A DNA stretch of 64,000 nucleotides, taken from sequence record MN850587.1, one strand, 5' to 3'. Positions within the stretch are counted from its first letter, which is position 1. Every line of letters begins with the position of its first letter. This DNA is from Escherichia phage mistaenkt. Below, piece after piece: positions 7,312 to 46,843 of this stretch. The notes under the pieces are model-generated. The model was not told the origin of the DNA and searched no databases. It was given only the letters and a program-made list of their open reading frames with translations. A program made the translations under genes and the position numbers.

Positions 7312-8094
7312 TTAGTTCTTTGCAGCTAAGAACTTGATATTGGAAATGTCTACAATTGCTTCAGCATCTTTCTCATTTGCTGCAAGAATGTACACATCAG
7401 GTTCACTTCCAAATGTCACTGCACGTTGCATACTGCCTTTCAACGGTGGGGTAACTTGAGTGTTACTTAGAGACATTCTCTCAACCGGAGGGTTACTCCG
7501 ATGTACCTTGTTCTTACGATGCCTGAAGAGGGTAACTCCGTCTTCGTTGACAACGGCTACCCCTGCAAAGTATTGTGGTTCACTGTGATTACCCCATGTT
7601 GACAGAGTATTAAACATTGCCTCTTCAAATACGTAAAGGTAAACATCAACATCTGTCAAGATGTGATTCATGATTACCACAACAGCTTTCGGGTCAAGTC
7701 CACCAATACCTGCACCAATCATTGGGAGACCAACTTTCTTCAGTTGATTCACTTTGCAGTACTGGTTAAGGCTCAACAAAGCACTCTCAAGAGCATCGTA
7801 ACGGGCATCTTTACCAGTCTTCAACTGAGTATATAGGTTAGCAATACGGCCTTGTTTAAGACGTGCTACAGAGAGTTTACCAAGCAGTTTCTGGCAAGGT
7901 TTATGCCCTCTTCCTCCTGCTACACGGTAGACTTCAGCATCGGTTTCATAGGCTTTTGGGTAGCCTTTAGAAATCTTATCAGCAATACCTGCACCCATCA
8001 GGTTCATGCAGTTACAACCGTGACCGATGATATCAAACTTACCTTTTTCAAAGTCTGCGAAGATATCACCTTTGATGACTTTTACAATACCCAT
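7312..8094 (-). CDS. Macro-domain protein with uncharacterised C-terminal extension (260 aa)
   Basis: N-terminal GDIFADFEKGKFDIIGHGCNCMNLMGAGIA and later GLPMIGAGIGGLDP resemble macro-domain GDIT...NAAN...GGGV and FPAISTGIYG motifs; C-terminal about 100 aa unrecognised. Confidence 0.6.
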   Translation of the reverse strand: MGIVKVIKGDIFADFEKGKFDIIGHGCNCMNLMGAGIADKISKGYPKAYETDAEVYRVAGGRGHKPCQKLLGKLSVARLKQGRIANLYTQLKTGKDARYDALESALLSLNQYCKVNQLKKVGLPMIGAGIGGLDPKAVVVIMNHILTDVDVYLYVFEEAMFNTLSTWGNHSEPQYFAGVAVVNEDGVTLFRHRKNKVHRSNPPVERMSLSNTQVTPPLKGSMQRAVTFGSEPDVYILAANEKDAEAIVDISNIKFLAAKN

Positions 8095-8314: not shown

Positions 8315-8615
8315 AGAGAACTTTCTCTGTCAACTCGTACAAGTCTACATGCTCTATGCCAGCAATGTCAATACCAAGTTTAGTATAACGCTCTTTGATA
8401 TCTTTCTCATTCATCCAGATAAGACACCAATGATTCCTGACAGACTCTTCGAGTTTATCTACACAATCATGAAATGTTGGTGTGTCACCTCTTGTACCAA
8501 CCATTGCCACAACACCATAAAGGAACTCACCGTTACCATGTGTGACTTGTGCTACACCAATATCTTTTTCACTATCTTGAATAACAGCTACAAAGGTTTT
8601 ACCATTCAATTCCAT
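8289..8615 (-). CDS. Hypothetical protein (108 aa)
   Basis: ORF in operon context. Confidence 0.55.
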   Translation of the reverse strand: MELNGKTFVAVIQDSEKDIGVAQVTHGNGEFLYGVVAMVGTRGDTPTFHDCVDKLEESVRNHWCLIWMNEKDIKERYTKLGIDIAGIEHVDLYELTEKVLFEKGKENG

Positions 8616-8772
8616 CAGAGACTACCTCTTCAATTTGTTGTAGAATTGCTTCTGAAGTTTCTTCCCACATCATCATACTGTCAATATCACCACAACAGCT
8701 TTCTCCAGCAACGTTGTAACGTGCTTGACCATATTCTTTGATGAGTTCAATCAACTTCTCTTTGCTTGACAT
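8599..8772 (-). CDS. Small acidic protein (57 aa), not in ORF track
   Basis: ATG at 8772, overlaps the start of the next gene; hand translation MSSKEKLIELIKEYGQARYNVAGESCCGDIDSMMMWEETSEAILQQIEEVVSDGIEW. Confidence 0.3.
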   Translation of the reverse strand: MSSKEKLIELIKEYGQARYNVAGESCCGDIDSMMMWEETSEAILQQIEEVVSDGIEW

Positions 8773-8773
8773 G

Positions 8774-9043
8774 CTACTTCCTCGTTTTGAGAACTGCCAT
8801 AATTTCTTTGGTATCTTCTAAGAACCATGTGTAGTGATTCTCTTTGATTTCTGGATGCGTGTCAATCTTTAATTTGCAATCTCTTCCAGTATCTTTAAGT
8901 TGAGTTGTAATACCCTTCATAAAGATATGACACATCACGTCATCCATAACCATTGGCATGAAGTCAATGCGCATGTAAGTATCTTTTGGTCTTGGAAGAA
9001 GTAAATAACCTTCTGTATAGAACAGTTCTGTCTCTTGACTCAT
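8774..9043 (-). CDS. Hypothetical protein (89 aa)
   Basis: ORF in operon context. Confidence 0.55.
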   Translation of the reverse strand: MSQETELFYTEGYLLLPRPKDTYMRIDFMPMVMDDVMCHIFMKGITTQLKDTGRDCKLKIDTHPEIKENHYTWFLEDTKEIMAVLKTRK

Positions 9044-9309
9044 TGCTGCTTATTCCCTAACAAAATCATATCAATCAAATTATTGGCTTTCATCGTACAC
9101 TGATAGTATCCATCACGATAAAATTCAAGGGCTTGTGACAGGTCTGTGCCTGTATTACCCTTGACAACATAGCGTGATTCTTCTTGAGTGTACTTATCAT
9201 TTTCACTTACTTGGGAGTTTTTGAACGTAGAGTTCACTTTGTTCATTGAACACCCTGACATAAGTATCAGTAGCACAAATGTTATAAAACTCTGGCTTAG
9301 TCTTTTCAT
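9040..9309 (-). CDS. Putative o-spanin (outer-membrane lipoprotein)
   Basis: Signal peptide with lipobox-like LILMSGC; short mature protein with one more Cys; overlaps the 3 prime end of the upstream TM protein gene in another frame. Confidence 0.45.
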   Translation of the reverse strand: MKRLSQSFITFVLLILMSGCSMNKVNSTFKNSQVSENDKYTQEESRYVVKGNTGTDLSQALEFYRDGYYQCTMKANNLIDMILLGNKQQ

Positions 9310-9550
9310 ATGTCAATACCTCTTTTGTGTGTTTGTTTTTAGCAAGCACATCTTTCAAATCATTTTTGTAACTGGAGCTAAGATTTGATAAACCTTCTTG
9401 GTAAGCATCCTTAGCAACACTGACAAGTTTCTGATTAGTTAACTCTGTTTGAGTGACTTGGTAATCCTTGTAAGAATAACCTCCCCAGACACCTACACCA
9501 ATCAGGAAAACAACTATGAAAGCGGCTTGACAGAACTCTTTAAATGTCAT
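9203..9550 (-). CDS. Putative i-spanin (N-terminal TM anchor, periplasmic helical domain)
   Basis: TM segment AAFIVVFLIGVGVWGGY then charged helical region; 107 bp overlap with the lipoprotein gene. Confidence 0.45.
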   Translation of the reverse strand: MTFKEFCQAAFIVVFLIGVGVWGGYSYKDYQVTQTELTNQKLVSVAKDAYQEGLSNLSSSYKNDLKDVLAKNKHTKEVLTYEKTKPEFYNICATDTYVRVFNEQSELYVQKLPSK

Positions 9551-9564
9551 TTGTCAATCTCCTA

Positions 9565-9590
9565 AAACGAAAAAGGCTCCCGAAGGAGCC
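9565..9590 (-). terminator. Rho-independent terminator with UUCG-type tetraloop
   Basis: GGCTCC-CGAA-GGAGCC; minus-strand RNA GGCUCC-UUCG-GGAGCC followed by UUUUUCGUUUU. Confidence 0.7.
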
Positions 9591-9602
9591 TGTATCATAA
9601 CC

Positions 9603-10067
9603 TTAACCGAGGACTTTAGCAAGGACATTCGCAGCCATCGTTGAAGCTTTTGCAGCAGCAGCTACGCCAGCCTTGATAGTGCTATCCTTAATGGCAGATA
9701 CCGTTGCAGCATCAGTAAAGAGATACGTGGTAGTTTGCGAACCACTTGTAAAGGAAAGCATAAGAGCAGTTTCCAGATTGAAAGAACGGTACGGAGCACC
9801 GGACTGTACAATTCCTTTAGCACCTAACTCCGAAGCCATACCCATATCATAGATGGTCATCAGGTTTTCTTTATGTGCTGTAGTAGAACCGACACCTTTA
9901 ACGTGTTTTGAAACGTTCAGCAAAGCACGATATTCACGGATATCACCATCCGCTTTTACGTTGACAGCACGAAAGATTTTGCCATCAAAGTTGCTTTTAA
10001 TGATATCACGAACAACCTGTGATTTGTTTGCTGATGCGTCGATAGCTACTGTAATAATGTTTTGCAT
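9603..10067 (-). CDS. Hypothetical protein (154 aa), Ala/Ser/Thr-rich
   Basis: ORF followed by a strong terminator. Confidence 0.6.
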   Translation of the reverse strand: MQNIITVAIDASANKSQVVRDIIKSNFDGKIFRAVNVKADGDIREYRALLNVSKHVKGVGSTTAHKENLMTIYDMGMASELGAKGIVQSGAPYRSFNLETALMLSFTSGSQTTTYLFTDAATVSAIKDSTIKAGVAAAAKASTMAANVLAKVLG

Positions 10068-10079
10068 GATTTCTCTCTC

Positions 10080-10775
10080 TTAGTGTTTGATAAGCATTGT
10101 TTTAATGTCTGGAAGGATTCGTTTAACCTTCTCAACATTCCTTACTGTATCTTCTATAAAGCATACTACATCATAGTACGGAAGAATGCAAGACTGAATC
10201 ATACGAACTTTCAAACTTTCTGCACTGATTCTGTTTGAACCAAAACCACGCATAAAAAGCATGTAGTCAGTCACAATATGCTTGTCAATAAATAAATGAG
10301 TTGGTACACGTTGAGACTCGCCACGAGCAGTTAAAACACCGATTGCAGCACTCTGATGAATGCCTGAAATGATGTTGAAGATATACGTAGGTTGAGCATC
10401 AACTGAGTCAATCAAGTTTGTATATTGTGACAGAGTACCATCTTCTAGATACGTTGAATTTGTCGGCTTATCAAACTTAGTGAGGACACCATCAATATCT
10501 GTTAAAACCATTGGCTTTTTCATATCAAGGTCTTTTGCAACCAAGATTAAACTATCACGTTTCACTGACACTGTTTTACCTGATTGAAGGTCTGTGCATA
10601 ACACTCTTTCAGCCGTGGAATGGAAGTTCTTAAAATCACACTCAACAGCCCTTGCAGTATCTGCAAAGTCTTCTTTCATAAGGTCTGTCCAACTTGCTGC
10701 ACTTAAATCAATATCCAAAGGATTGATATCGTAAGCGTGACAAAATACCTTGTCCAATTGTTTTAATTCGCTCAT
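10080..10775 (-). CDS. Putative HAD-superfamily phosphatase or nucleotidase (start uncertain)
   Basis: Internal MVLTDIDGVL resembles HAD motif I (DxDG); track start 10817 overlaps the upstream gene; ATG at 10775 has an AAGG SD; later Mets at 10679 and 10520 are possible. Confidence 0.45.
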   Translation of the reverse strand: MSELKQLDKVFCHAYDINPLDIDLSAASWTDLMKEDFADTARAVECDFKNFHSTAERVLCTDLQSGKTVSVKRDSLILVAKDLDMKKPMVLTDIDGVLTKFDKPTNSTYLEDGTLSQYTNLIDSVDAQPTYIFNIISGIHQSAAIGVLTARGESQRVPTHLFIDKHIVTDYMLFMRGFGSNRISAESLKVRMIQSCILPYYDVVCFIEDTVRNVEKVKRILPDIKTMLIKH

Positions 10776-11301
10776 GTTTAACCTTTTTAATGTTTGTTGC
10801 AAACTCACATTGAGCAAGCACCTTCATGTTATTGTACACATCTTGAGAGTATTGTCTAGCTTTTGGGATGCGATATGAGTAACCTGCATTGTATGAAGCT
10901 AAGACACGCTGTAAAGAATATTTCCCATTAGGATTACCATGAACCTTAGTCCAGAACTGAAGCTCTTTGTGTGTTTCCTTTGCAGCATAATCGAAGTCTC
11001 TGATAAGTTTCTTCTTAGCTACGTTTGGGTTAACTTTGTTACGCTTTACAACAGTCTTCAAGTGATTCTGGAACAATCCATAATCGTGAGTCTTTTTATT
11101 TTCAAGACGAAGACCTAACTCTGACTCTTGTAAGGCTATAGCGGCTAAGGTTAAACCCCAACCTTTACCCATCTCTTTCTCACCGTAGTGATAAGCTTTA
11201 AGCATGTTTGTTTTCTGACTGATGGATAATTCTGGACAGTCTGAAGCAACTGCCAAATGTGCTGTTAAGAATAAGCACAAACCTAAAATGAACTTCTTCA
11301 T
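10708..11301 (-). CDS. Lytic transglycosylase (SLT domain) with N-terminal signal peptide; candidate secreted endolysin
   Basis: Signal-like MKKFILGLCLFLTAHLAVAS; catalytic-region motifs ALQESELG and DYGLFQ typical of family 1 lytic transglycosylases. Confidence 0.7.
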   Translation of the reverse strand: MKKFILGLCLFLTAHLAVASDCPELSISQKTNMLKAYHYGEKEMGKGWGLTLAAIALQESELGLRLENKKTHDYGLFQNHLKTVVKRNKVNPNVAKKKLIRDFDYAAKETHKELQFWTKVHGNPNGKYSLQRVLASYNAGYSYRIPKARQYSQDVYNNMKVLAQCEFATNIKKVKHERIKTIGQGILSRLRYQSFGY

Positions 11302-11360
11302 TGGTTCTCCTGTTTAGTTCAACATGCAAGCAATTATACACTACTCTGCACAAAACACAA

Positions 11361-11385
11361 ATAAAAAAGGCTGCCGAAGCAGCCC
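11361..11385 (-). terminator. Rho-independent terminator with UUCG-type tetraloop
   Basis: GGCTGC-CGAA-GCAGCC; on minus strand followed by TTTTTTAT. Confidence 0.7.
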
Positions 11386-11401
11386 TTTAAGAATTTACTT
11401 A

Positions 11402-12529
11402 TCAGATTTCACGTTTACGCTGAGAAATCAGTTCACCAGCAGTACCTACAACAACATGCAGTGCTTCAGATTTGCCATCCCACTCTTTGACAACCTGACG
11501 CTGACCATTTACAATTGCTGCAACCTCATAACGTGAAGCTCGCATTTTCATGTCTTGATAATCAGTTGGTACAGATACAACGTCTCGTGGATGTACACGA
11601 ACTTTCAGGATGGTATCACCAGAGAAGCTACGTACATAATCCCAAGCACCAACATGAAGACCTTGAGAGCAAGTTACTGTACGGTCATTATCAACCATCC
11701 ATCGTGGCATTTCTACAACGTTACCCAAATCATTAGGAACTTTGCATGTACGAGAGTCAAACAGCTTACCGCCACGAGTTGTAACTTTCTTCCAACCAAT
11801 GATATAACCTTCTTCATCAATCTCAACATCAAGGTGAGATACAAAGCCCCAAAGTTGTTCTACAGAATCTTTGGATGGGTTTTCCATAAGTTTTTCGAAG
11901 AATGCTACCAGACGTTTAAATCCGTCATCACCAACTTTCATCATGTCCAGAATACGGTCTACCAGAGTTGAACGCATTTGTACAGCACCGTAGTACAGGT
12001 TATCGCCTTTGATAGTGATTGCACCCTGAGTGAAGTTTTCGATAGATTTGCGGATATTCATCAGTTCGAAAGCTTTCTTATACTCGCCACCTACAACAGC
12101 CATCACAATCTCTTTGTAGTTCGGATGGGTAGACTCAACGATTTCAGAATCTGCACCGAAAGTCATGATAACAGAATCACCAGTAATCATGTACTCAATC
12201 TGGTTACCATTCTGCATTGCTTCATGCAGTTGGTTAACAGGTTCTTTCTTCACTGCCTCTTTAACAGCTTTGGCAACTTTGGCAACTTTGGCAACTGGTT
12301 TAGTAGCCGTCTTCTTAGCAGACTTTGCAATCTGTTTCAGAGTCTGTTTAGCTGGCTTGGAAGTTGCTTTCTTAGCACCTCTCAGTGTTGCTTCGTGACG
12401 TTCTACAGCACGACCAACGGAACGTGTAGAAGTATTATACTTCATTGCAATGGCAGTTTTGGTCAGTTTACCTTCCTGAACCATTGCATAAATTTCTGCG
12501 TCGATTTGTGCTTTAGTTTTAGTAGTCAT
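11402..12529 (-). CDS. Putative rIIB-like protein with N-terminal HTH-like segment and Lys/Ala-rich tract (375 aa)
   Basis: Immediately downstream of rIIA, as in T4-type rII loci; KKATSKPAKQTLKQIAKSAKKTATKPVAKVAKVAKAVKEAVKK tract; rIIB identity is by position and recollection, not verified. Confidence 0.45.
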   Translation of the reverse strand: MTTKTKAQIDAEIYAMVQEGKLTKTAIAMKYNTSTRSVGRAVERHEATLRGAKKATSKPAKQTLKQIAKSAKKTATKPVAKVAKVAKAVKEAVKKEPVNQLHEAMQNGNQIEYMITGDSVIMTFGADSEIVESTHPNYKEIVMAVVGGEYKKAFELMNIRKSIENFTQGAITIKGDNLYYGAVQMRSTLVDRILDMMKVGDDGFKRLVAFFEKLMENPSKDSVEQLWGFVSHLDVEIDEEGYIIGWKKVTTRGGKLFDSRTCKVPNDLGNVVEMPRWMVDNDRTVTCSQGLHVGAWDYVRSFSGDTILKVRVHPRDVVSVPTDYQDMKMRASRYEVAAIVNGQRQVVKEWDGKSEALHVVVGTAGELISQRKREI

Positions 12530-12608
12530 CTTATTACTCTCTCTTGTTAGTTAAAATTACTTAGTGGCTCGTATTCTAAGGGGCTTTTCAGCCCCTGTCA
12601 AACTATTT

Positions 12609-14975
12609 TTAATCAAAAGCCTGAGTTCCTTCAGGGATGCACTTAACATCAAACCCTAAGAACTGACCAACTTCAACAGGACTTACTTTATTCCAGTCTA
12701 AGTTAGAAAGCAAGAAGTTTTCTGCTTTACGTGCTTTGAAGTATACGGTCAATTTCTGCTTAATACGTTCTCTTGCGTTGTATATTGCAGAATGTACCTT
12801 ACTCTTCGCTCTTGTCAAACGCTGTAAGTCATGCAGAACGCTTGTAACGTCTTTATAAGCAATCGGTGAAGCAACATAAGCCAGCTTACCAAACATTGCT
12901 TCTACGGCCTCTTCGTTCCCTTCCAAGAAGATACGTTTGCTGTAATCAGCACTATATACATAGCCTCTTGAGCACTTCTTATCACCAAACTGGAACGTTC
13001 TGGCAATAACACCTTTATCAGTGATATCGCAGTTTGAGCTACACCACTCACGAGTTACAAAGCGGTTAAACTCAATCCAGTGAATGTCAGTGATAGAGTC
13101 TTTGAAGACTTGCTGATTCACTTCTAACCAGTCTTCAGGAATTTTCTTCCAGTTTGCTTTACGGAACACATAAACTGGCTGTCCAGTTAAACGTGCCATA
13201 ACCTTTGCAGCACCTTCTGGTGAGCAATTAAAGATTCCACCCAAAACATCATCACCCTGTGCTTTGATATAATACTGAGGTTCTTCAATATCATCAAAGT
13301 TTTCTTTGACTTCTGTATAAGATACACCGTGTTCATGTACAGAAGCTTTGTAGAGTTTTACAACACCACGAGTTACGGTACGCTTCACATAGTGATGCTC
13401 TTTGTCAGACATTTTAACAATCGTCAACAGACTCTTATCAATCATGTGGAGATTAATAAACTGGTCTAACTCTTGTTCATCATAGAACACATAAACAATA
13501 CCGTTGTAGCGACGGAAGTTCGGTTCTTCATTTTCACGGTCACGACAAGCGCCACGAATAATCTGATTGCGTCCTACAGTCTTTTCAGTACCATTTTTGT
13601 TTCGACGGTCATTGATAAGGAACAAATAGTTAGACATTTTGTTCTTACTCATTGCACCGAAGATACTGAAGTTCGCACCTTCCTGAGTGTACATCGCTGA
13701 AGTTGCACGAATCTTATTTTCCAGTTGACTATACTTGAAGTAAGCAACAGGCTCATACAGATTCCCAATAACAGGAATGTGATTACCACTCTTATCAACA
13801 ACCAAAGCTCCTGAATCATCAGTTGCAAACTTTGGAGTGCCATCTTCATTACTCAACTGTCCTTGACGAATCTTTAAAAGTCTCTGTTCAAGGTCTGCTA
13901 AGTTCTGACCATTCCATTCAAGACGTGTAAACACATGCTGGAAGATTTCACGAGAGTTAGCTCGCAAGTCTGCATAAGCCTGTGCAGCGTCTGCCAAGGT
14001 TGGCTCGTTGTCAATACGTTTTACCACATCTTCTACAATCGTTGCAGTAATCTTTTTAACTGCATCTGTAATTGCTTTCTTAGTGGTCTCATTCATCTGC
14101 AATGCTTCACGAGATGCAGCGATAGCCACTGAACCGATTGGCATGTAGATGTTAACAAGGTCTACAGCATTACGGAAGAAGGTAGGCAGTACGTTGGTGA
14201 ACTCTGCACCAAGTAAATCTCCTAAGTCAACCGGATAAGCAATGTTACCCATGACAACGTTGAAGTTTGTCTGGTTATTACTTGAACGCCAGTTCTCTTT
14301 ATACTTCATTGCATCGTAAACACCATCTTCACGAACAATGGTTGTCATCTCACTGAGAATGTCACGATATTCAACGTTGCATTCTGGCTTCAGTTTGAAG
14401 TAAGAGAATACGTTACTCGCTTCTTCATGGAACTTCTGAATACGGTGGCCAGCCACTGCAACACGAACTGCTAAACCATTTGGTTCGGTAGTTGGGTTAG
14501 TAGTCAGTTTAGTAACTTGAGGAATACCATTCTCAAGATATACAGAGTACTTGTTAACCACTCCATCTACGTAGCTGGACACGGTGAATGACTGTGCAAT
14601 TGCAAAAGGTGACTTCGAACCGATACCCATAGCGCCGATGTAGTCGTTTGAGTCATTCTTAGTAGAAGCTCCATAGTTCAGGTACAGAGACATAACCTTC
14701 TCATGAGTCAGGCCAGTACCGAAGTCACGAACTTCAAAGTACGGGTCAAAACGAGTTGGCAGGTGTACACGAAATGGTACATTCTCTTTTCCAGCTTCTT
14801 TGTGAGTATCTACAGCATTACAAGACAACTCACGAATTACAGCACGTTCTTTAAAAGTGTAGACACCTGAACTTAACAGGCTGAACATTTCAGGAGTCAT
14901 CGTGATAGATGCCTGAGAAGTTTCTAATGAAGATGAACTCTTAATCACCTCTGCGTGGTCATTTACCATGCGCAT
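12609..14975 (-). CDS. rIIA: rIIA-like protein with GHKL-type ATPase domain (788 aa)
   Basis: Bergerat-fold motifs IRELSCNAVDT (N box), EVRDFGTGL (DxGxG), GAMGIGSKS (GxxGxG); size and position fit phage rIIA. Confidence 0.75.
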   Translation of the reverse strand: MRMVNDHAEVIKSSSSLETSQASITMTPEMFSLLSSGVYTFKERAVIRELSCNAVDTHKEAGKENVPFRVHLPTRFDPYFEVRDFGTGLTHEKVMSLYLNYGASTKNDSNDYIGAMGIGSKSPFAIAQSFTVSSYVDGVVNKYSVYLENGIPQVTKLTTNPTTEPNGLAVRVAVAGHRIQKFHEEASNVFSYFKLKPECNVEYRDILSEMTTIVREDGVYDAMKYKENWRSSNNQTNFNVVMGNIAYPVDLGDLLGAEFTNVLPTFFRNAVDLVNIYMPIGSVAIAASREALQMNETTKKAITDAVKKITATIVEDVVKRIDNEPTLADAAQAYADLRANSREIFQHVFTRLEWNGQNLADLEQRLLKIRQGQLSNEDGTPKFATDDSGALVVDKSGNHIPVIGNLYEPVAYFKYSQLENKIRATSAMYTQEGANFSIFGAMSKNKMSNYLFLINDRRNKNGTEKTVGRNQIIRGACRDRENEEPNFRRYNGIVYVFYDEQELDQFINLHMIDKSLLTIVKMSDKEHHYVKRTVTRGVVKLYKASVHEHGVSYTEVKENFDDIEEPQYYIKAQGDDVLGGIFNCSPEGAAKVMARLTGQPVYVFRKANWKKIPEDWLEVNQQVFKDSITDIHWIEFNRFVTREWCSSNCDITDKGVIARTFQFGDKKCSRGYVYSADYSKRIFLEGNEEAVEAMFGKLAYVASPIAYKDVTSVLHDLQRLTRAKSKVHSAIYNARERIKQKLTVYFKARKAENFLLSNLDWNKVSPVEVGQFLGFDVKCIPEGTQAFD

Positions 14976-15033: not shown

Positions 15034-15216
15034 TCAACTGTTTCCGTTATGTTTCTTTCCAGTTCCACCACAATAAGGGCAGCAACCATAACTTACCAGA
15101 CCTGTACCATCACAATCTTCACACTCTTCTGCACCGAAATAGTGTTTAGCCAGAAGGTATCCGATTACAATCAGACCACCAAATGACAGGATTAACTCTA
15201 ACCAATAACCTTGCAT
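15034..15216 (-). CDS. Small membrane protein with DnaJ-type zinc finger (60 aa)
   Basis: TM segment LELILSFGGLIVIGYLL followed by two CxxCxGxG repeats (CEDCDGTG, CPYCGGTG). Confidence 0.5.
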   Translation of the reverse strand: MQGYWLELILSFGGLIVIGYLLAKHYFGAEECEDCDGTGLVSYGCCPYCGGTGKKHNGNS

Positions 15217-23293: not shown

Positions 23294-23500
23294 TTAATTC
23301 TTTTTGAAAATCTTCTCAACAAACTTTTTGAGTTTGCCGCTAATGTCAAGATGGATTTCTAGAATCTCAAAGATTACCCATACTAGCATAGCACCAAACA
23401 AAGCACCTTGTTTGATATCAATAAACAGGTTCACAAAGAAGAAACCGAGTACAATCATCGGTGCATCAACTGTGAAACCTTCCCACAAACGCTTAAGCAT
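23294..23500 (-). CDS. Small membrane protein (68 aa)
   Basis: Two hydrophobic segments (MIVLGFFFVNLFI, ALFGAMLVWVIFEIL). Confidence 0.5.
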   Translation of the reverse strand: MLKRLWEGFTVDAPMIVLGFFFVNLFIDIKQGALFGAMLVWVIFEILEIHLDISGKLKKFVEKIFKKN

Positions 23501-46274: not shown

Positions 46275-46649
46275 TTATTTTTTCTTAGCATTTTGAGTGT
46301 TCTGTTCAGTGATTGCTTGCAAAGCCGATACAGACTGTGCTAGGTTATTAACACTGTCAGAGAATTTATCAAGGGTTTTGGTCAACTTGGCGTTTTCACC
46401 CTTTACGTTCTCTAGCTGAACCTTCTGGTTCTCCATGCCTAATTGCAGGAGTTTCATGTCAGACTGTAAATCACGAATAGCTGAATAGTTGCTTTTGTTG
46501 TAACTATCAAGCTGTTGTAACTTTGTCGAAACGGAAACTTCCTGCTTCCCACTAGACACCTGCATTGTAGTGTACATACCAATTACACTGAAGATACCCA
46601 CAACAATTGCACCAATATTATTTTTGAAAGCATCCTCTAACCATCTCAT
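46275..46649 (-). CDS. Membrane-anchored coiled-coil protein (124 aa); possible lysis or fibre-associated function
   Basis: TM segment IGAIVVGIFSVIGMY then a long heptad-like helix; last gene of the late operon. Confidence 0.5.
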   Translation of the reverse strand: MRWLEDAFKNNIGAIVVGIFSVIGMYTTMQVSSGKQEVSVSTKLQQLDSYNKSNYSAIRDLQSDMKLLQLGMENQKVQLENVKGENAKLTKTLDKFSDSVNNLAQSVSALQAITEQNTQNAKKK

Positions 46650-46843
46650 TCTTTCTCCCCTTTAAAGGCTTTTTCCAAGTTATTAACAAATTCATCATCA
46701 ATAGGCGTATCTGTCTTACTCGCAAGGTATCTTGCAAGTCTGAAGAAGGCTTTCTCAATCATGTATTCACTCAGAAGGGAAAGAACGAGTTTCCAGAGGA
46801 AGCTACCCAAGTTTTTTAAGAGGATTGCTAGGATAGTCGGCAT
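46646..46843 (-). CDS. Small hydrophobic protein (65 aa)
   Basis: Hydrophobic N-terminus ILAILLKNLGSFLWKLVLSLL; ATGA overlap with the downstream gene. Confidence 0.5.
   Translation of the reverse strand: MPTILAILLKNLGSFLWKLVLSLLSEYMIEKAFFRLARYLASKTDTPIDDEFVNNLEKAFKGEKE

Follow-up and report, generated by a model that had tools for sequence, protein, structure and literature searches.

The window analyzed here, a stretch of 64,000 nucleotides from Escherichia phage mistaenkt (MN850587.1), is by sequence similarity part of a Felix O1-like myophage genome. The genes of interest belong to what is recognizable as an early/middle block, consisting of rIIA, rIIB, a vs.1-like gene, a polynucleotide kinase (PNK)-like gene, an uncharacterized gene and the genes for a pair of spanins, with a tk.4-like macro-domain gene further on. 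The following features were located, all of them on the minus strand:

11365-11388, minus strand: intrinsic terminator between rIIB and the Vs.1-like gene that follows it (terminator scan; the same element is annotated in Mijalis)
11333-11360, minus strand: candidate sigma-70-type promoter of the Vs.1-like gene, TTGTGT-16-TATAAT (read from the sequence)
10708-11301, minus strand: Vs.1-family GH23 lytic transglycosylase, predicted to be exported (197 aa, against 183 aa in relatives)
10080-10775, minus strand: 'polynucleotide kinase' by annotation, resembling HAD/PNKP phosphatases (231 aa, counted from an ATG at position 10775; phrog_3970, 7.6e-118)
9603-10067, minus strand: conserved 154-aa protein (phrog_2267, 1.9e-50)
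9574-9591, minus strand: intrinsic terminator directly ahead of the i-spanin gene (terminator scan; annotated at the same place in Mijalis)
9203-9550, minus strand: i-spanin, 115 aa (phrog_1152 'Rz-like spanin', 1.4e-37; hydropathy; annotations)
9040-9309, minus strand: o-spanin, 89 aa (phrog_4180, 3e-47; weak match to phrog_456 'Rz-like spanin')

The Vs.1-like gene lies directly after rIIB, behind the terminator and the TATAAT element, and an AGGAG sequence (11311-11307) is located between the candidate promoter and the ATG, five nucleotides ahead of the latter. The promoter was missed by the consensus scan because its -35 hexamer matches the consensus at only 3 of 6 positions. The match of the PNK-like protein to Pfam HAD_PNKP was below the cutoff (0.0034), and its comparison with T4 PseT gave only a weak C-terminal match and none to the kinase domain. 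The 154-aa protein matched nothing in Pfam or NCBIfam, and the NCBIfam search with eight proteins yielded nothing meaningful for any of them.

A preliminary description of this DNA had called the lysis genes dispersed. This is correct and, like the spanins themselves, has already been published for Felix O1-like phages (SpaninDB, PMC6139136; Moogle announcement, PMC4319497); the genes of the region are 95-99% identical to deposited sequences. In T4, too, the lysis components are dispersed and form no cassette. For the window itself the analysis means very little, and its value is mainly corrective.

The spanin pair

Hydropathy analysis of the i-spanin with the KD scale revealed a single hydrophobic segment at residues ~9-24 (KD19 maximum of 2.0 at residue 6; KD11 of 3.1 at residue 11). 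The 90 aa beyond it form a polar domain. The protein is thus predicted to be of type II, with an N-terminal transmembrane (TM) helix and its bulk in the periplasm. The periplasmic domain is predicted to be partly helical. A single-sequence AF2 model, with helices at residues 35-52 and 59-71 and short strands after them, was set aside as evidence since its confidence was too low (mean pLDDT 42.5). In the SpaninDB supplement, the ortholog of Felix O1 is listed with a helix content of 66%, and a coiled coil is predicted for the Moogle protein, but not for that of Felix O1 (PMC6139136).

The o-spanin starts with a predicted signal for signal peptidase II, MKRLSQSFITFVLLILMSG, ending immediately before C20-S21. 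The lipobox pattern was matched (LMSG followed by C20), the residue at position +2 being Ser and not Asp, and both C20 and the lipobox are kept in the four phages aligned. The mature lipoprotein would comprise 70 aa, with no proline and one further cysteine, C71. Each spanin has a single periplasmic cysteine (C92 in the i-spanin, C71 in the o-spanin) that could serve in a homotypic intermolecular disulfide, and both are invariant in the aligned orthologs. The two genes overlap by 107 nucleotides in different frames (9203-9309), and the overlap shows dual-coding constraint. AAGAGG lies upstream of the o-spanin ATG, and the stop codon of the gene overlaps the start of the next (ATGA).

The inner- and outer-membrane spanin pair proposed in the preliminary description is supported by the TM segment, the lipobox, the phrog_1152 match and the orthologs in SpaninDB (PMC6139136). 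The i-spanin is annotated as such in Mijalis, Moogle, Meda and others, and the o-spanin in Mijalis (CPT annotation). Two annotations of the o-spanin call for correction: its CDS is missing from the RefSeq record of SUSP2, and in CHB7 it starts downstream of the lipobox. The SUSP1 orthologs of the spanins were scored 'Not Fit' in CRISPRi-ART, a screen that also misses the essential gene e of T4.

The closest known system is the ORF6/ORF7 pair of Felix O1 (SpaninDB entries 'Felix01', 'wV8' and 'Moogle'; Kongari et al. 2018, PMC6139136), which SpaninDB classes as 'ovl' with a 107-bp overlap. The spanins in the window are 84-85% identical to those of Felix O1 at the amino-acid level and 79-81% identical to those of Mijalis. 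They share their lengths (115 and 89 aa), the 107-nt overlap, the lipobox position and the periplasmic cysteines with the pairs of Felix O1, wV8 and Moogle, and there is no difference of substance, only a few substitutions such as LMSGC here versus LISGC in Mijalis.

In common with lambda Rz/Rz1, P2 LysB/LysC and T4 PseT.3/PseT.2, the pair combines a type II inner-membrane protein with an outer-membrane lipoprotein, encoded by adjacent or overlapping genes and carrying periplasmic cysteines. The genes are overlapped here, whereas they are embedded in lambda and separated in T4, and the o-spanin is devoid of proline, unlike the proline-rich Rz1. As in T4, where the spanins are expressed early or in the middle period, the genes adjoin a PNK gene in the early region, apart from those for holin and endolysin, although the order of the spanin and PNK genes is reversed. 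Since no sequence similarity to PseT.3/PseT.2 or to the lambda spanins was detectable, the parallel to T4 is one of organization and not of demonstrated homology.

By analogy with lambda Rz/Rz1 and T4 PseT.3/PseT.2, the N-terminal TM helix would anchor the i-spanin in the inner membrane, and the o-spanin, with its lipid on Cys20, would be sorted to the outer one. Joined across the periplasm, the two proteins would then, after destruction of the peptidoglycan, bring about the fusion of both membranes and with it the final step of lysis.

The Vs.1-family transglycosylase

The N-terminal signal-like segment noted previously for the SLT-like protein was verified as a predicted Sec-type signal peptide. 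It covers residues 1-19 (nt 11245-11301), with rule-based cleavage between AVA and SD. The h-region consists of 13 residues rich in Leu, Phe and Ile (KD11 of 2.6) and is followed by A-V-A before the Ser, which satisfies the -3/-1 rule of signal peptidase I. The N-terminal sequence varies across the Vs.1 family, but its character as a signal peptide is conserved. Identity as a SAR endolysin was rejected, since a SAR domain is an uncleaved, weakly hydrophobic TM segment rich in Gly, Ala and Ser, whereas the h-region here is short, rich in Leu and Phe and leads into an AxA site.

The catalytic E59-S60 and the YGLFQ and SYNAG motifs are all present. Among 166 diverse members, E59 was found in all 166, as were Y137, G140 and Y151, while S60 was found in 163 and N138 in 159. 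E59 aligns with the catalytic Glu region of EtgA, a specialized lytic transglycosylase of the EPEC T3SS (PDB 4XP8/8URN). In searches of PDB sequences, the single sequence gave chance matches only, and it took a profile built from an alignment to arrive at EtgA. The fold is alpha-helical and goose-type-lysozyme-like, with weak Foldseek E-values. The match to Pfam PF01464 (SLT) scored 20.0 bits, below the gathering cutoff of 21.3, but the domain is present in the distant family members P0016 and P0017, and equally marginal SLT matches were reported earlier for T4 vs.1 orthologs. The fold and the motifs compensate for the sub-threshold score. On these grounds, the protein is classified as a GH23 family-1 lytic transglycosylase with an intact active site, predicted to be active with transglycosylase chemistry, of which a 1,6-anhydroMurNAc product would be the mark. 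Residues C22 and C165 are likely to form a disulfide. The GH23 family also holds hydrolytic g-type lysozymes and a chitinase.

Residues 1-170 matched positions 1-176 of the 178 in the phrog_600 profile (8.8e-57), to which T4 Vs.1 (NP_049725) also belongs (2.1e-68). In a direct BLASTP comparison, the window protein and T4 Vs.1 were 31% identical (E 5e-15) in an alignment that spans their entire length, signal peptide included, and the T4 protein is named in a note of the Felix O1 ORF3 record. Both proteins display QES, YG(L/M)FQN and SYN(A/S)G motifs, have about 180 aa and are encoded in the early region of a genome that also carries a T4-e-type lysozyme. However, T4 Vs.1 lacks the C22/C165 pair and an Asp equivalent to D60 of EtgA, and the neighboring genes are regB and vs in T4 but rIIB and the PNK-like gene here. 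The T4 gene has an early RNA and a middle protein. Unlike EtgA, the Vs.1 family is phage-encoded and has no known partner machine, and D73 is replaced by Ser in most members.

A word-indexed homolog search, which found only 17 relatives, had given the impression of an Ounavirinae-only family. This was discarded after a tblastn search against phages and an exhaustive profile search, which revealed a large family: 2129 phage records contain matches, among them T4-like, Felix O1-like and Vi01-like phages. Our literature search found nothing on a Felixounavirus lytic transglycosylase, nor on a periplasmic vs.1.

Endolysin and holin

The preliminary description took the SLT-like protein for the endolysin of the phage. 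This claim was not upheld, since all closest relatives encode a separate, soluble T4-e-like lysozyme of 154 aa (Felix O1 gp35, SUSP2 gp120; 96-100% identity), and the SLT-like protein is homologous to T4 Vs.1. The lysozyme had no tblastn match within the 64-kb window. The Felix O1 and Moogle papers name it as the lysin/endolysin (Moogle: PMC4319497), and it has been characterized as an enzybiotic candidate. Several GenBank records label the Vs.1-like gene 'putative lysin' and so probably name the wrong enzyme, which is relevant to enzybiotic mining of Felix O1-like phages.

Of the holin candidates proposed previously, the segment 46275-46843 coincides with a protein annotated as 'putative holin' and a neighboring membrane protein:

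46275-46649, minus strand: 'putative holin' of relatives, a 124-aa TM and coiled-coil protein encoded after the tail-fibre gene (annotation; function putative)
46646-46843, minus strand: small membrane protein of 65 aa, phrog_402, an alternative holin candidate overlapping the start of the 'putative holin' by 4 nt

The 124-aa protein is 99% identical to SUSP2 gp028. Its SUSP1 ortholog, agp028, was 'Not Fit' in CRISPRi-ART, whereas the ortholog of the 65-aa protein, agp027, was 'Fit' (2.27, p 0.0007), and its small-plaque phenotype was validated. No holin family in Pfam, PHROGs or NCBIfam was matched by any of the four candidates, and holin assignments in the phage group are putative. The candidate at 15034-15216 contains a DnaJ-type CxxCxGxG zinc-finger motif, and that at 23294-23500 is located within the nrd cluster.

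Role of the transglycosylase

The reading that we favor, with a probability of roughly 0.7, combines spanins of the overlapped class with an accessory transglycosylase of the Vs.1 family, lysis itself being carried out by the separate T4-e-like lysozyme together with a holin. The Vs.1-like gene would be transcribed from its own host-type promoter, and the protein, once exported by Sec, would be set free in the periplasm through cleavage by signal peptidase I. As a small single-domain GH23 enzyme, it would there cut the glycan strands of peptidoglycan, independently of a holin. Its timing is deduced from T4 and from the position of the gene. Most likely, it serves as an accessory peptidoglycan-remodeling factor that conditions the sacculus during infection and not as the executor of lysis. 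That task would fall to the cytoplasmic lysozyme, predicted to be encoded ~6.5 kb beyond position 1 of the window and to be released by a putative holin encoded beside the tail-fibre gene (46275-46843). Because a constitutively exported, active transglycosylase could cause premature lysis, some control of the enzyme must be assumed, such as a low level, a low activity or a requirement for a partner as for EtgA.

That the SLT-like protein is nevertheless the endolysin, exported by Sec in secretory or SAR form so that lysis needs no canonical large-hole holin, is unlikely. In its favor are the muralytic fold with its intact active site, the signal sequence, the label 'putative lysin' in some GenBank records, the lack of a canonical endolysin in the 64-kb window and the unproven status of the holin in the phage group. 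Known exported endolysins are the SAR endolysins P1 Lyz and phage 21 R and the signal-peptide endolysin Lys44 of oenophage fOg44, muralytic enzymes that get to the periplasm or cell wall via Sec without a holin pore, as is predicted for the present protein. However, each of these is the sole endolysin of its phage and the product of a late gene, and the SAR domains are uncleaved and Gly/Ala-rich, whereas here a separate soluble lysozyme is published as the endolysin, the T4 homolog is transcribed early and the signal appears cleavable by signal peptidase I. In T4, e mutants show no lysis although vs.1 is present. The coexisting gene e is listed as essential for lysis in the CRISPRi-ART supplement. 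In that screen, the SUSP1 ortholog of the Vs.1-like gene scored 1.02 (p 0.28; positive, non-significant) and the lysozyme gene 0.82 (p 0.14). Since the two scores are similar, the transglycosylase may have a real share in lysis through redundancy. The fitness scores from SUSP1 and T4 were nevertheless rejected as evidence on lysis genes in either direction, because the essential endolysin gene e of T4 was itself scored 'Not Fit'.

It is very improbable that the protein is a virion-associated transglycosylase piercing the peptidoglycan at entry. A cleavable Sec signal would direct it to the periplasm, away from virion assembly in the cytoplasm, and the gene is located in the early region and not in the structural module. 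Virion association, on which the preliminary description had made its endolysin claim depend, is not what undermines that claim, as the protein is not reported in the published virion proteomes of Felix O1 and VpaE1. We consider it quite unlikely that the enzyme opens local peptidoglycan gaps for an envelope-spanning assembly such as the spanins encoded 1.1 kb downstream, in the manner of EtgA and of IpgF, VirB1 and P19, which are also specialized lytic transglycosylases of secretion systems. In T4, vs.1 and pseT.3/pseT.2 lie ~73 kb apart, so that the linkage is not a conserved one, and terminators separate the Vs.1-like and spanin units here. A plasmid search for T4SS-type relatives returned no plasmid or secretion-system homologs. 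Moreover, lambda and other phages assemble their spanins without such an enzyme. It is also improbable that the protein has no part in lysis and acts from the periplasm in conflicts between phages or between phage and host, for example in superinfection exclusion or cell-wall counter-defence. T4 has other early periplasmic exclusion proteins, Sp and Imm, and the gene is found among early genes of accessory or anti-defence type, its neighbors being rIIA/rIIB here, and Gad2 and Mom on a distant 67-kb metagenomic phage contig, where a canonical endolysin is also present. Furthermore, knockdown of T4 vs.1 was 'Semi-Fit' in CRISPRi-ART, and the authors suggest that such uncharacterized genes may be related to defence inhibition. 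However, the strict invariance of catalytic residues across the 166 members argues for cleavage of peptidoglycan, and no defence-related family was matched in the libraries searched (PADLOC was outside the search).

The one real question raised by the region is the role of the Vs.1 family, which is conserved from T4 to Felix O1, predicted to be exported, intact in its active site and without an assigned function after 20 years; the 'Semi-Fit' knockdown in T4 hints that it matters. We tentatively suggest, as a generalization that is somewhat less probable than its opposite, that the family represents a widespread, uncharacterized class of Sec-exported, holin-independent periplasmic lytic transglycosylases, made in early or mid-infection by large virulent phages of Gram-negative bacteria. 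Their distinct, non-redundant role could be preconditioning of the sacculus for lysis, assembly of envelope-spanning complexes, or superinfection and defence conflict. If so, Vs.1 would join holin, endolysin, spanins and antiholin as the fifth factor that acts on the envelope in T4-type infections.

Phage identity and gene layout

Megablast with window positions 8500-12600 matched 258 phage records. The top match was Salmonella phage PC79-13 (96.6%), followed by Enterobacteria phage CHB7 and Escherichia phages EcSzw-1/2, EP1 and SUSP2 (~95.6-95.8%), and the best matches all belong to the Ounavirinae, genus Suspvirus. The whole window aligns collinearly, in reverse orientation, with SUSP2 (NC_028935.2) positions ~71.2 kb to ~5.7 kb. 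All ORFs named in the preliminary description were found, on the minus strand. The lysis-related genes are located in a leftward block that starts with rIIA:

12609-14975, leftward, rIIA
11402-12529, leftward, rIIB
10708-11301, minus, SLT-like (Vs.1-like) protein, 197 aa
10080-10775, minus, HAD/PNKP-phosphatase-like protein, phrog_3970 "polynucleotide kinase"
9603-10067, minus, phrog_2267 protein
9203-9550, minus, i-spanin, 115 aa
9040-9309, minus, o-spanin, 89 aa

Two genes lie between the SLT-like gene and the spanin pair. The description of the lysis genes as dispersed is correct, and this layout is already published. It also has counterparts in T4, where the spanin genes pseT.3 and pseT.2 are early or middle genes that directly adjoin the polynucleotide kinase gene pseT. 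The macro-domain gene at 7312-8094 corresponds to T4 tk.4, and the annotated "putative holin" of this phage group comes after the tail-fibre gene, as does T4 t. Given these counterparts, it is not anomalous for the spanin genes to lie in an early block, well away from the endolysin.

The protein encoded at 10080-10775 is called "polynucleotide kinase" in relatives, and it matches the HAD phosphatase part of PNKP only. It carries a DxDGV motif (LTDIDGVLT), its match to Pfam HAD_PNKP is under the cutoff, and it aligns weakly with T4 PseT at the C-terminal phosphatase region alone. No kinase-domain match to PseT and, by eye, no P-loop were found, and the kinase label is probably overstated.

The spanin pair

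The TM/lipoprotein pair is predicted, from family matches, sequence features and gene geometry, to be an i-spanin and an o-spanin. The 115-aa protein has a single hydrophobic segment (residues ~9-24), and its profile hit is phrog_1152 "Rz-like spanin" (1.4e-37). A lipobox (LMSG↓C20) followed by Ser at +2 is present in the 89-aa protein, which hits phrog_4180 and, at a weak level, phrog_456 "Rz-like spanin". The genes overlap by 107 nt. Exactly this geometry is listed in SpaninDB for Felix01, wV8 and Moogle, which are classed as "ovl" (overlapped) with an i-spanin of 115 aa, an o-spanin of 89 aa and an overlap of 107 bp (Kongari et al. 2018, PMC6139136). The orthologs are labelled i-spanin/o-spanin in the Center for Phage Technology annotation of Citrobacter phages Mijalis and Moogle, and in many further records. 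The spanin reading is correct and already published.

Among the window, Mijalis, Felix O1 and SUSP2, identity is 79-98% for the two proteins. The lipobox Cys20 and one other periplasmic Cys per protein (C92 in the i-spanin, C71 in the o-spanin) do not vary. In a five-genome nucleotide alignment, variable sites make up 16% of the dual-coding 107 nt, as compared to 30% and 35% of the single-coding flanks, and the excess of changes usually seen at third positions is lost within the overlap, indicating selection on both frames. No sequence similarity was found between the window spanins and T4 PseT.3/PseT.2, and the o-spanin, unlike lambda Rz1, has no proline, so the pair forms a spanin family of its own. 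For the i-spanin, AF2 modelling from the single sequence gave a pLDDT of 42.5, too low for the model to be of use.

The i-spanin start is preceded, at a distance of 24 nt, by an intrinsic terminator (9591-9574); a terminator is annotated at the same place in Mijalis. The spanin genes could be transcribed either by read-through of this terminator or from a weak promoter-like site at 9622-9594. In SUSP2, an extra ~170-bp segment (61545-61718) with the small ORF gp084 (159 nt) separates the phrog_2267-type gene from the i-spanin gene; it is absent from the window (site 9552-9555) and from CHB7. The RefSeq SUSP2 record (NC_028935.2, 2041-2310) lacks the o-spanin CDS, yet its sequence contains an intact ORF with 98% identity to that of the window. 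In CHB7 (2041-2247) it is annotated from an internal Met past the lipobox Cys, and the signal sequence is thereby lost.

A predicted transglycosylase of the Vs.1 family

On alignment and profile evidence, the SLT-like protein belongs to the T4 Vs.1 family. It aligns with T4 Vs.1 over the full length (31% identity, E 5e-15), and both match phrog_600 (8.8e-57 and 2.1e-68, respectively). The Felix O1 record gives its counterpart, ORF3, the name under which T4 Vs.1 used to go, "hypothetical 20.7 KD protein in vs-regB intergenic region". By tblastn, matches were found in 2129 phage records, among them T4-like phages (gene vs.1), Vi01-like phages and Aeromonas phages; no homologs were found in the plasmid collection searched. 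A literature search retrieved no experimental work on Vs.1 function.

The signal-like N-terminal segment noted earlier is present (MKK-FILGLCLFLTAHL-AVA↓SD): its n-region is positively charged, its h-region spans 13 residues and is rich in Leu and Phe, and positions -3 and -1 carry small residues. A short N-terminal hydrophobic segment of signal-peptide type, not conserved in sequence, occurs in 151 of 164 family members. The Pfam SLT score is just short of the threshold (20.0 vs 21.3 bits). A profile of the family had one significant PDB sequence match, EtgA, the T3SS-specialised transglycosylase of EPEC (4e-5). An exhaustive profile search returned 863 cluster representatives at E <= 0.001. 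With an alignment of 13 sequences as input, AlphaFold gave a model of high confidence at residues ~22-165, and GH23 proteins rank top in Foldseek, with weak E-values. All of 166 aligned members keep the catalytic Glu (E59) as well as Y137, G140 and Y151, and 163 have S60. C22 and C165 tend to co-occur (odds ratio 11.8, a figure inflated by relatedness among the sequences), which fits a putative periplasmic disulfide. From these features, the protein is predicted to be a genuine GH23 enzyme that is exported.

D73 of the Felix O1 clade (THDYG) lines up with D60 of EtgA, which serves as a second acidic residue in the active site and gives EtgA its lysozyme-like character; this position is Ser in most of the wider Vs.1 family and Ala in T4. 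In relatives such as CHB7 and SUSP2 the ORF ends 14 codons earlier, at a TAA stop that reads CAA in the window. Through this single T>C substitution the ORF runs on (10708-10752) into the PNK-like gene (start 10775), in whose frame the substitution is synonymous (GAT>GAC).

Endolysin and holin candidates

The preliminary description took the signal-peptide transglycosylase to be the endolysin, a claim that is not supported. Close relatives have a separate soluble lysozyme, and e and vs.1 coexist in T4. T4 e mutants do not lyse, although vs.1 is intact. In the Felix O1 genome paper the lysin is gp35, a Phage_lysozyme/cd00737 protein, and the same type was characterised as an enzybiotic candidate in a 2022 study. 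SUSP2 gp120 is this lysozyme and occurs at 96-100% identity in PC79-13, CHB7, EP1, EcSzw-1/2 and SUSP1/2. It has no match within the 64-kb window since its gene maps ~6.5 kb beyond window position 1; the soluble lysozyme of the phage is located outside the window. A 67-kb metagenomic phage contig likewise carries a distant Vs.1-like homolog together with a Phage_lysozyme gene. In the window, the Vs.1-like gene comes straight after rIIB and is preceded by a TATAAT element and an intrinsic terminator (11388-11365); T4 vs.1 has early RNA and middle protein. A virion role is argued against by the Sec signal and by the Felix O1 and VpaE1 virion proteomes, in which no ORF3-type protein is reported. 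The Vs.1-like protein is therefore probably not the endolysin, and is best explained as an exported Vs.1-family GH23 transglycosylase with a predicted accessory role in the periplasm.

CRISPRi-ART screens cover T4 and SUSP1, the latter ~81% identical to the window here (Adler et al. 2025, PMC11879866). T4 vs.1 was graded "Semi-Fit" (0.81, p 0.10), a grade that it shares with four other genes whose function is purely unknown. "Not Fit" scores were obtained for the SUSP1 ortholog agp083 (1.02, p 0.28), the lysozyme agp124 (0.82, p 0.14), the spanins agp086 and agp087 (-0.54 and -1.38), and also the essential T4 gene e (-0.83). As the assay is thus blind to lysis functions, these scores were not weighed for or against any reading.

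The holin candidate proposed at 46275-46843 consists of two ORFs:

46275-46649, minus, 124-aa protein widely annotated "putative holin", apparent TM segment and coiled coil
46646-46843, minus, 65-aa membrane protein, just upstream with a 4-nt overlap (ATGA)

No holin-family support was found for the 124-aa protein, which weakly matches phrog_739, to which the T4 i-spanin PseT.3 belongs. The SUSP1 ortholog of the 124-aa protein, agp028, was "Not Fit". The ortholog of the 65-aa protein, agp027, was strongly "Fit" (2.27, p 0.0007), and a small-plaque phenotype was validated for it (PMC11879866). The 65-aa protein may be the real holin, or the agp027 knockdown may have a polar effect on the gene for the 124-aa protein. 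The overall observation is confirmed.

Positions 3510-6898 contain at least 8 dispersed direct repeats of ~91-98 nt, each upstream of one in a series of small early ORFs. Read on the minus strand, which is the coding one, every repeat terminates in ...CCTAAACTGGAGATTCAAAAATG and so provides a common 5' leader, ribosome-binding site and start codon, with a G+C-rich hairpin ahead of the leader. They resemble the mobile promoter/stem-loop regulatory cassettes of T4-type phages. A few genes downstream of the spanins, a 57-aa ORF (8599-8772, minus) is by position and size the apparent counterpart of SUSP1 agp089, which was "Fit" (1.89, p 0.016) and for which complementation confirmed a critical role in infection (Adler et al. 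2025, PMC11879866).
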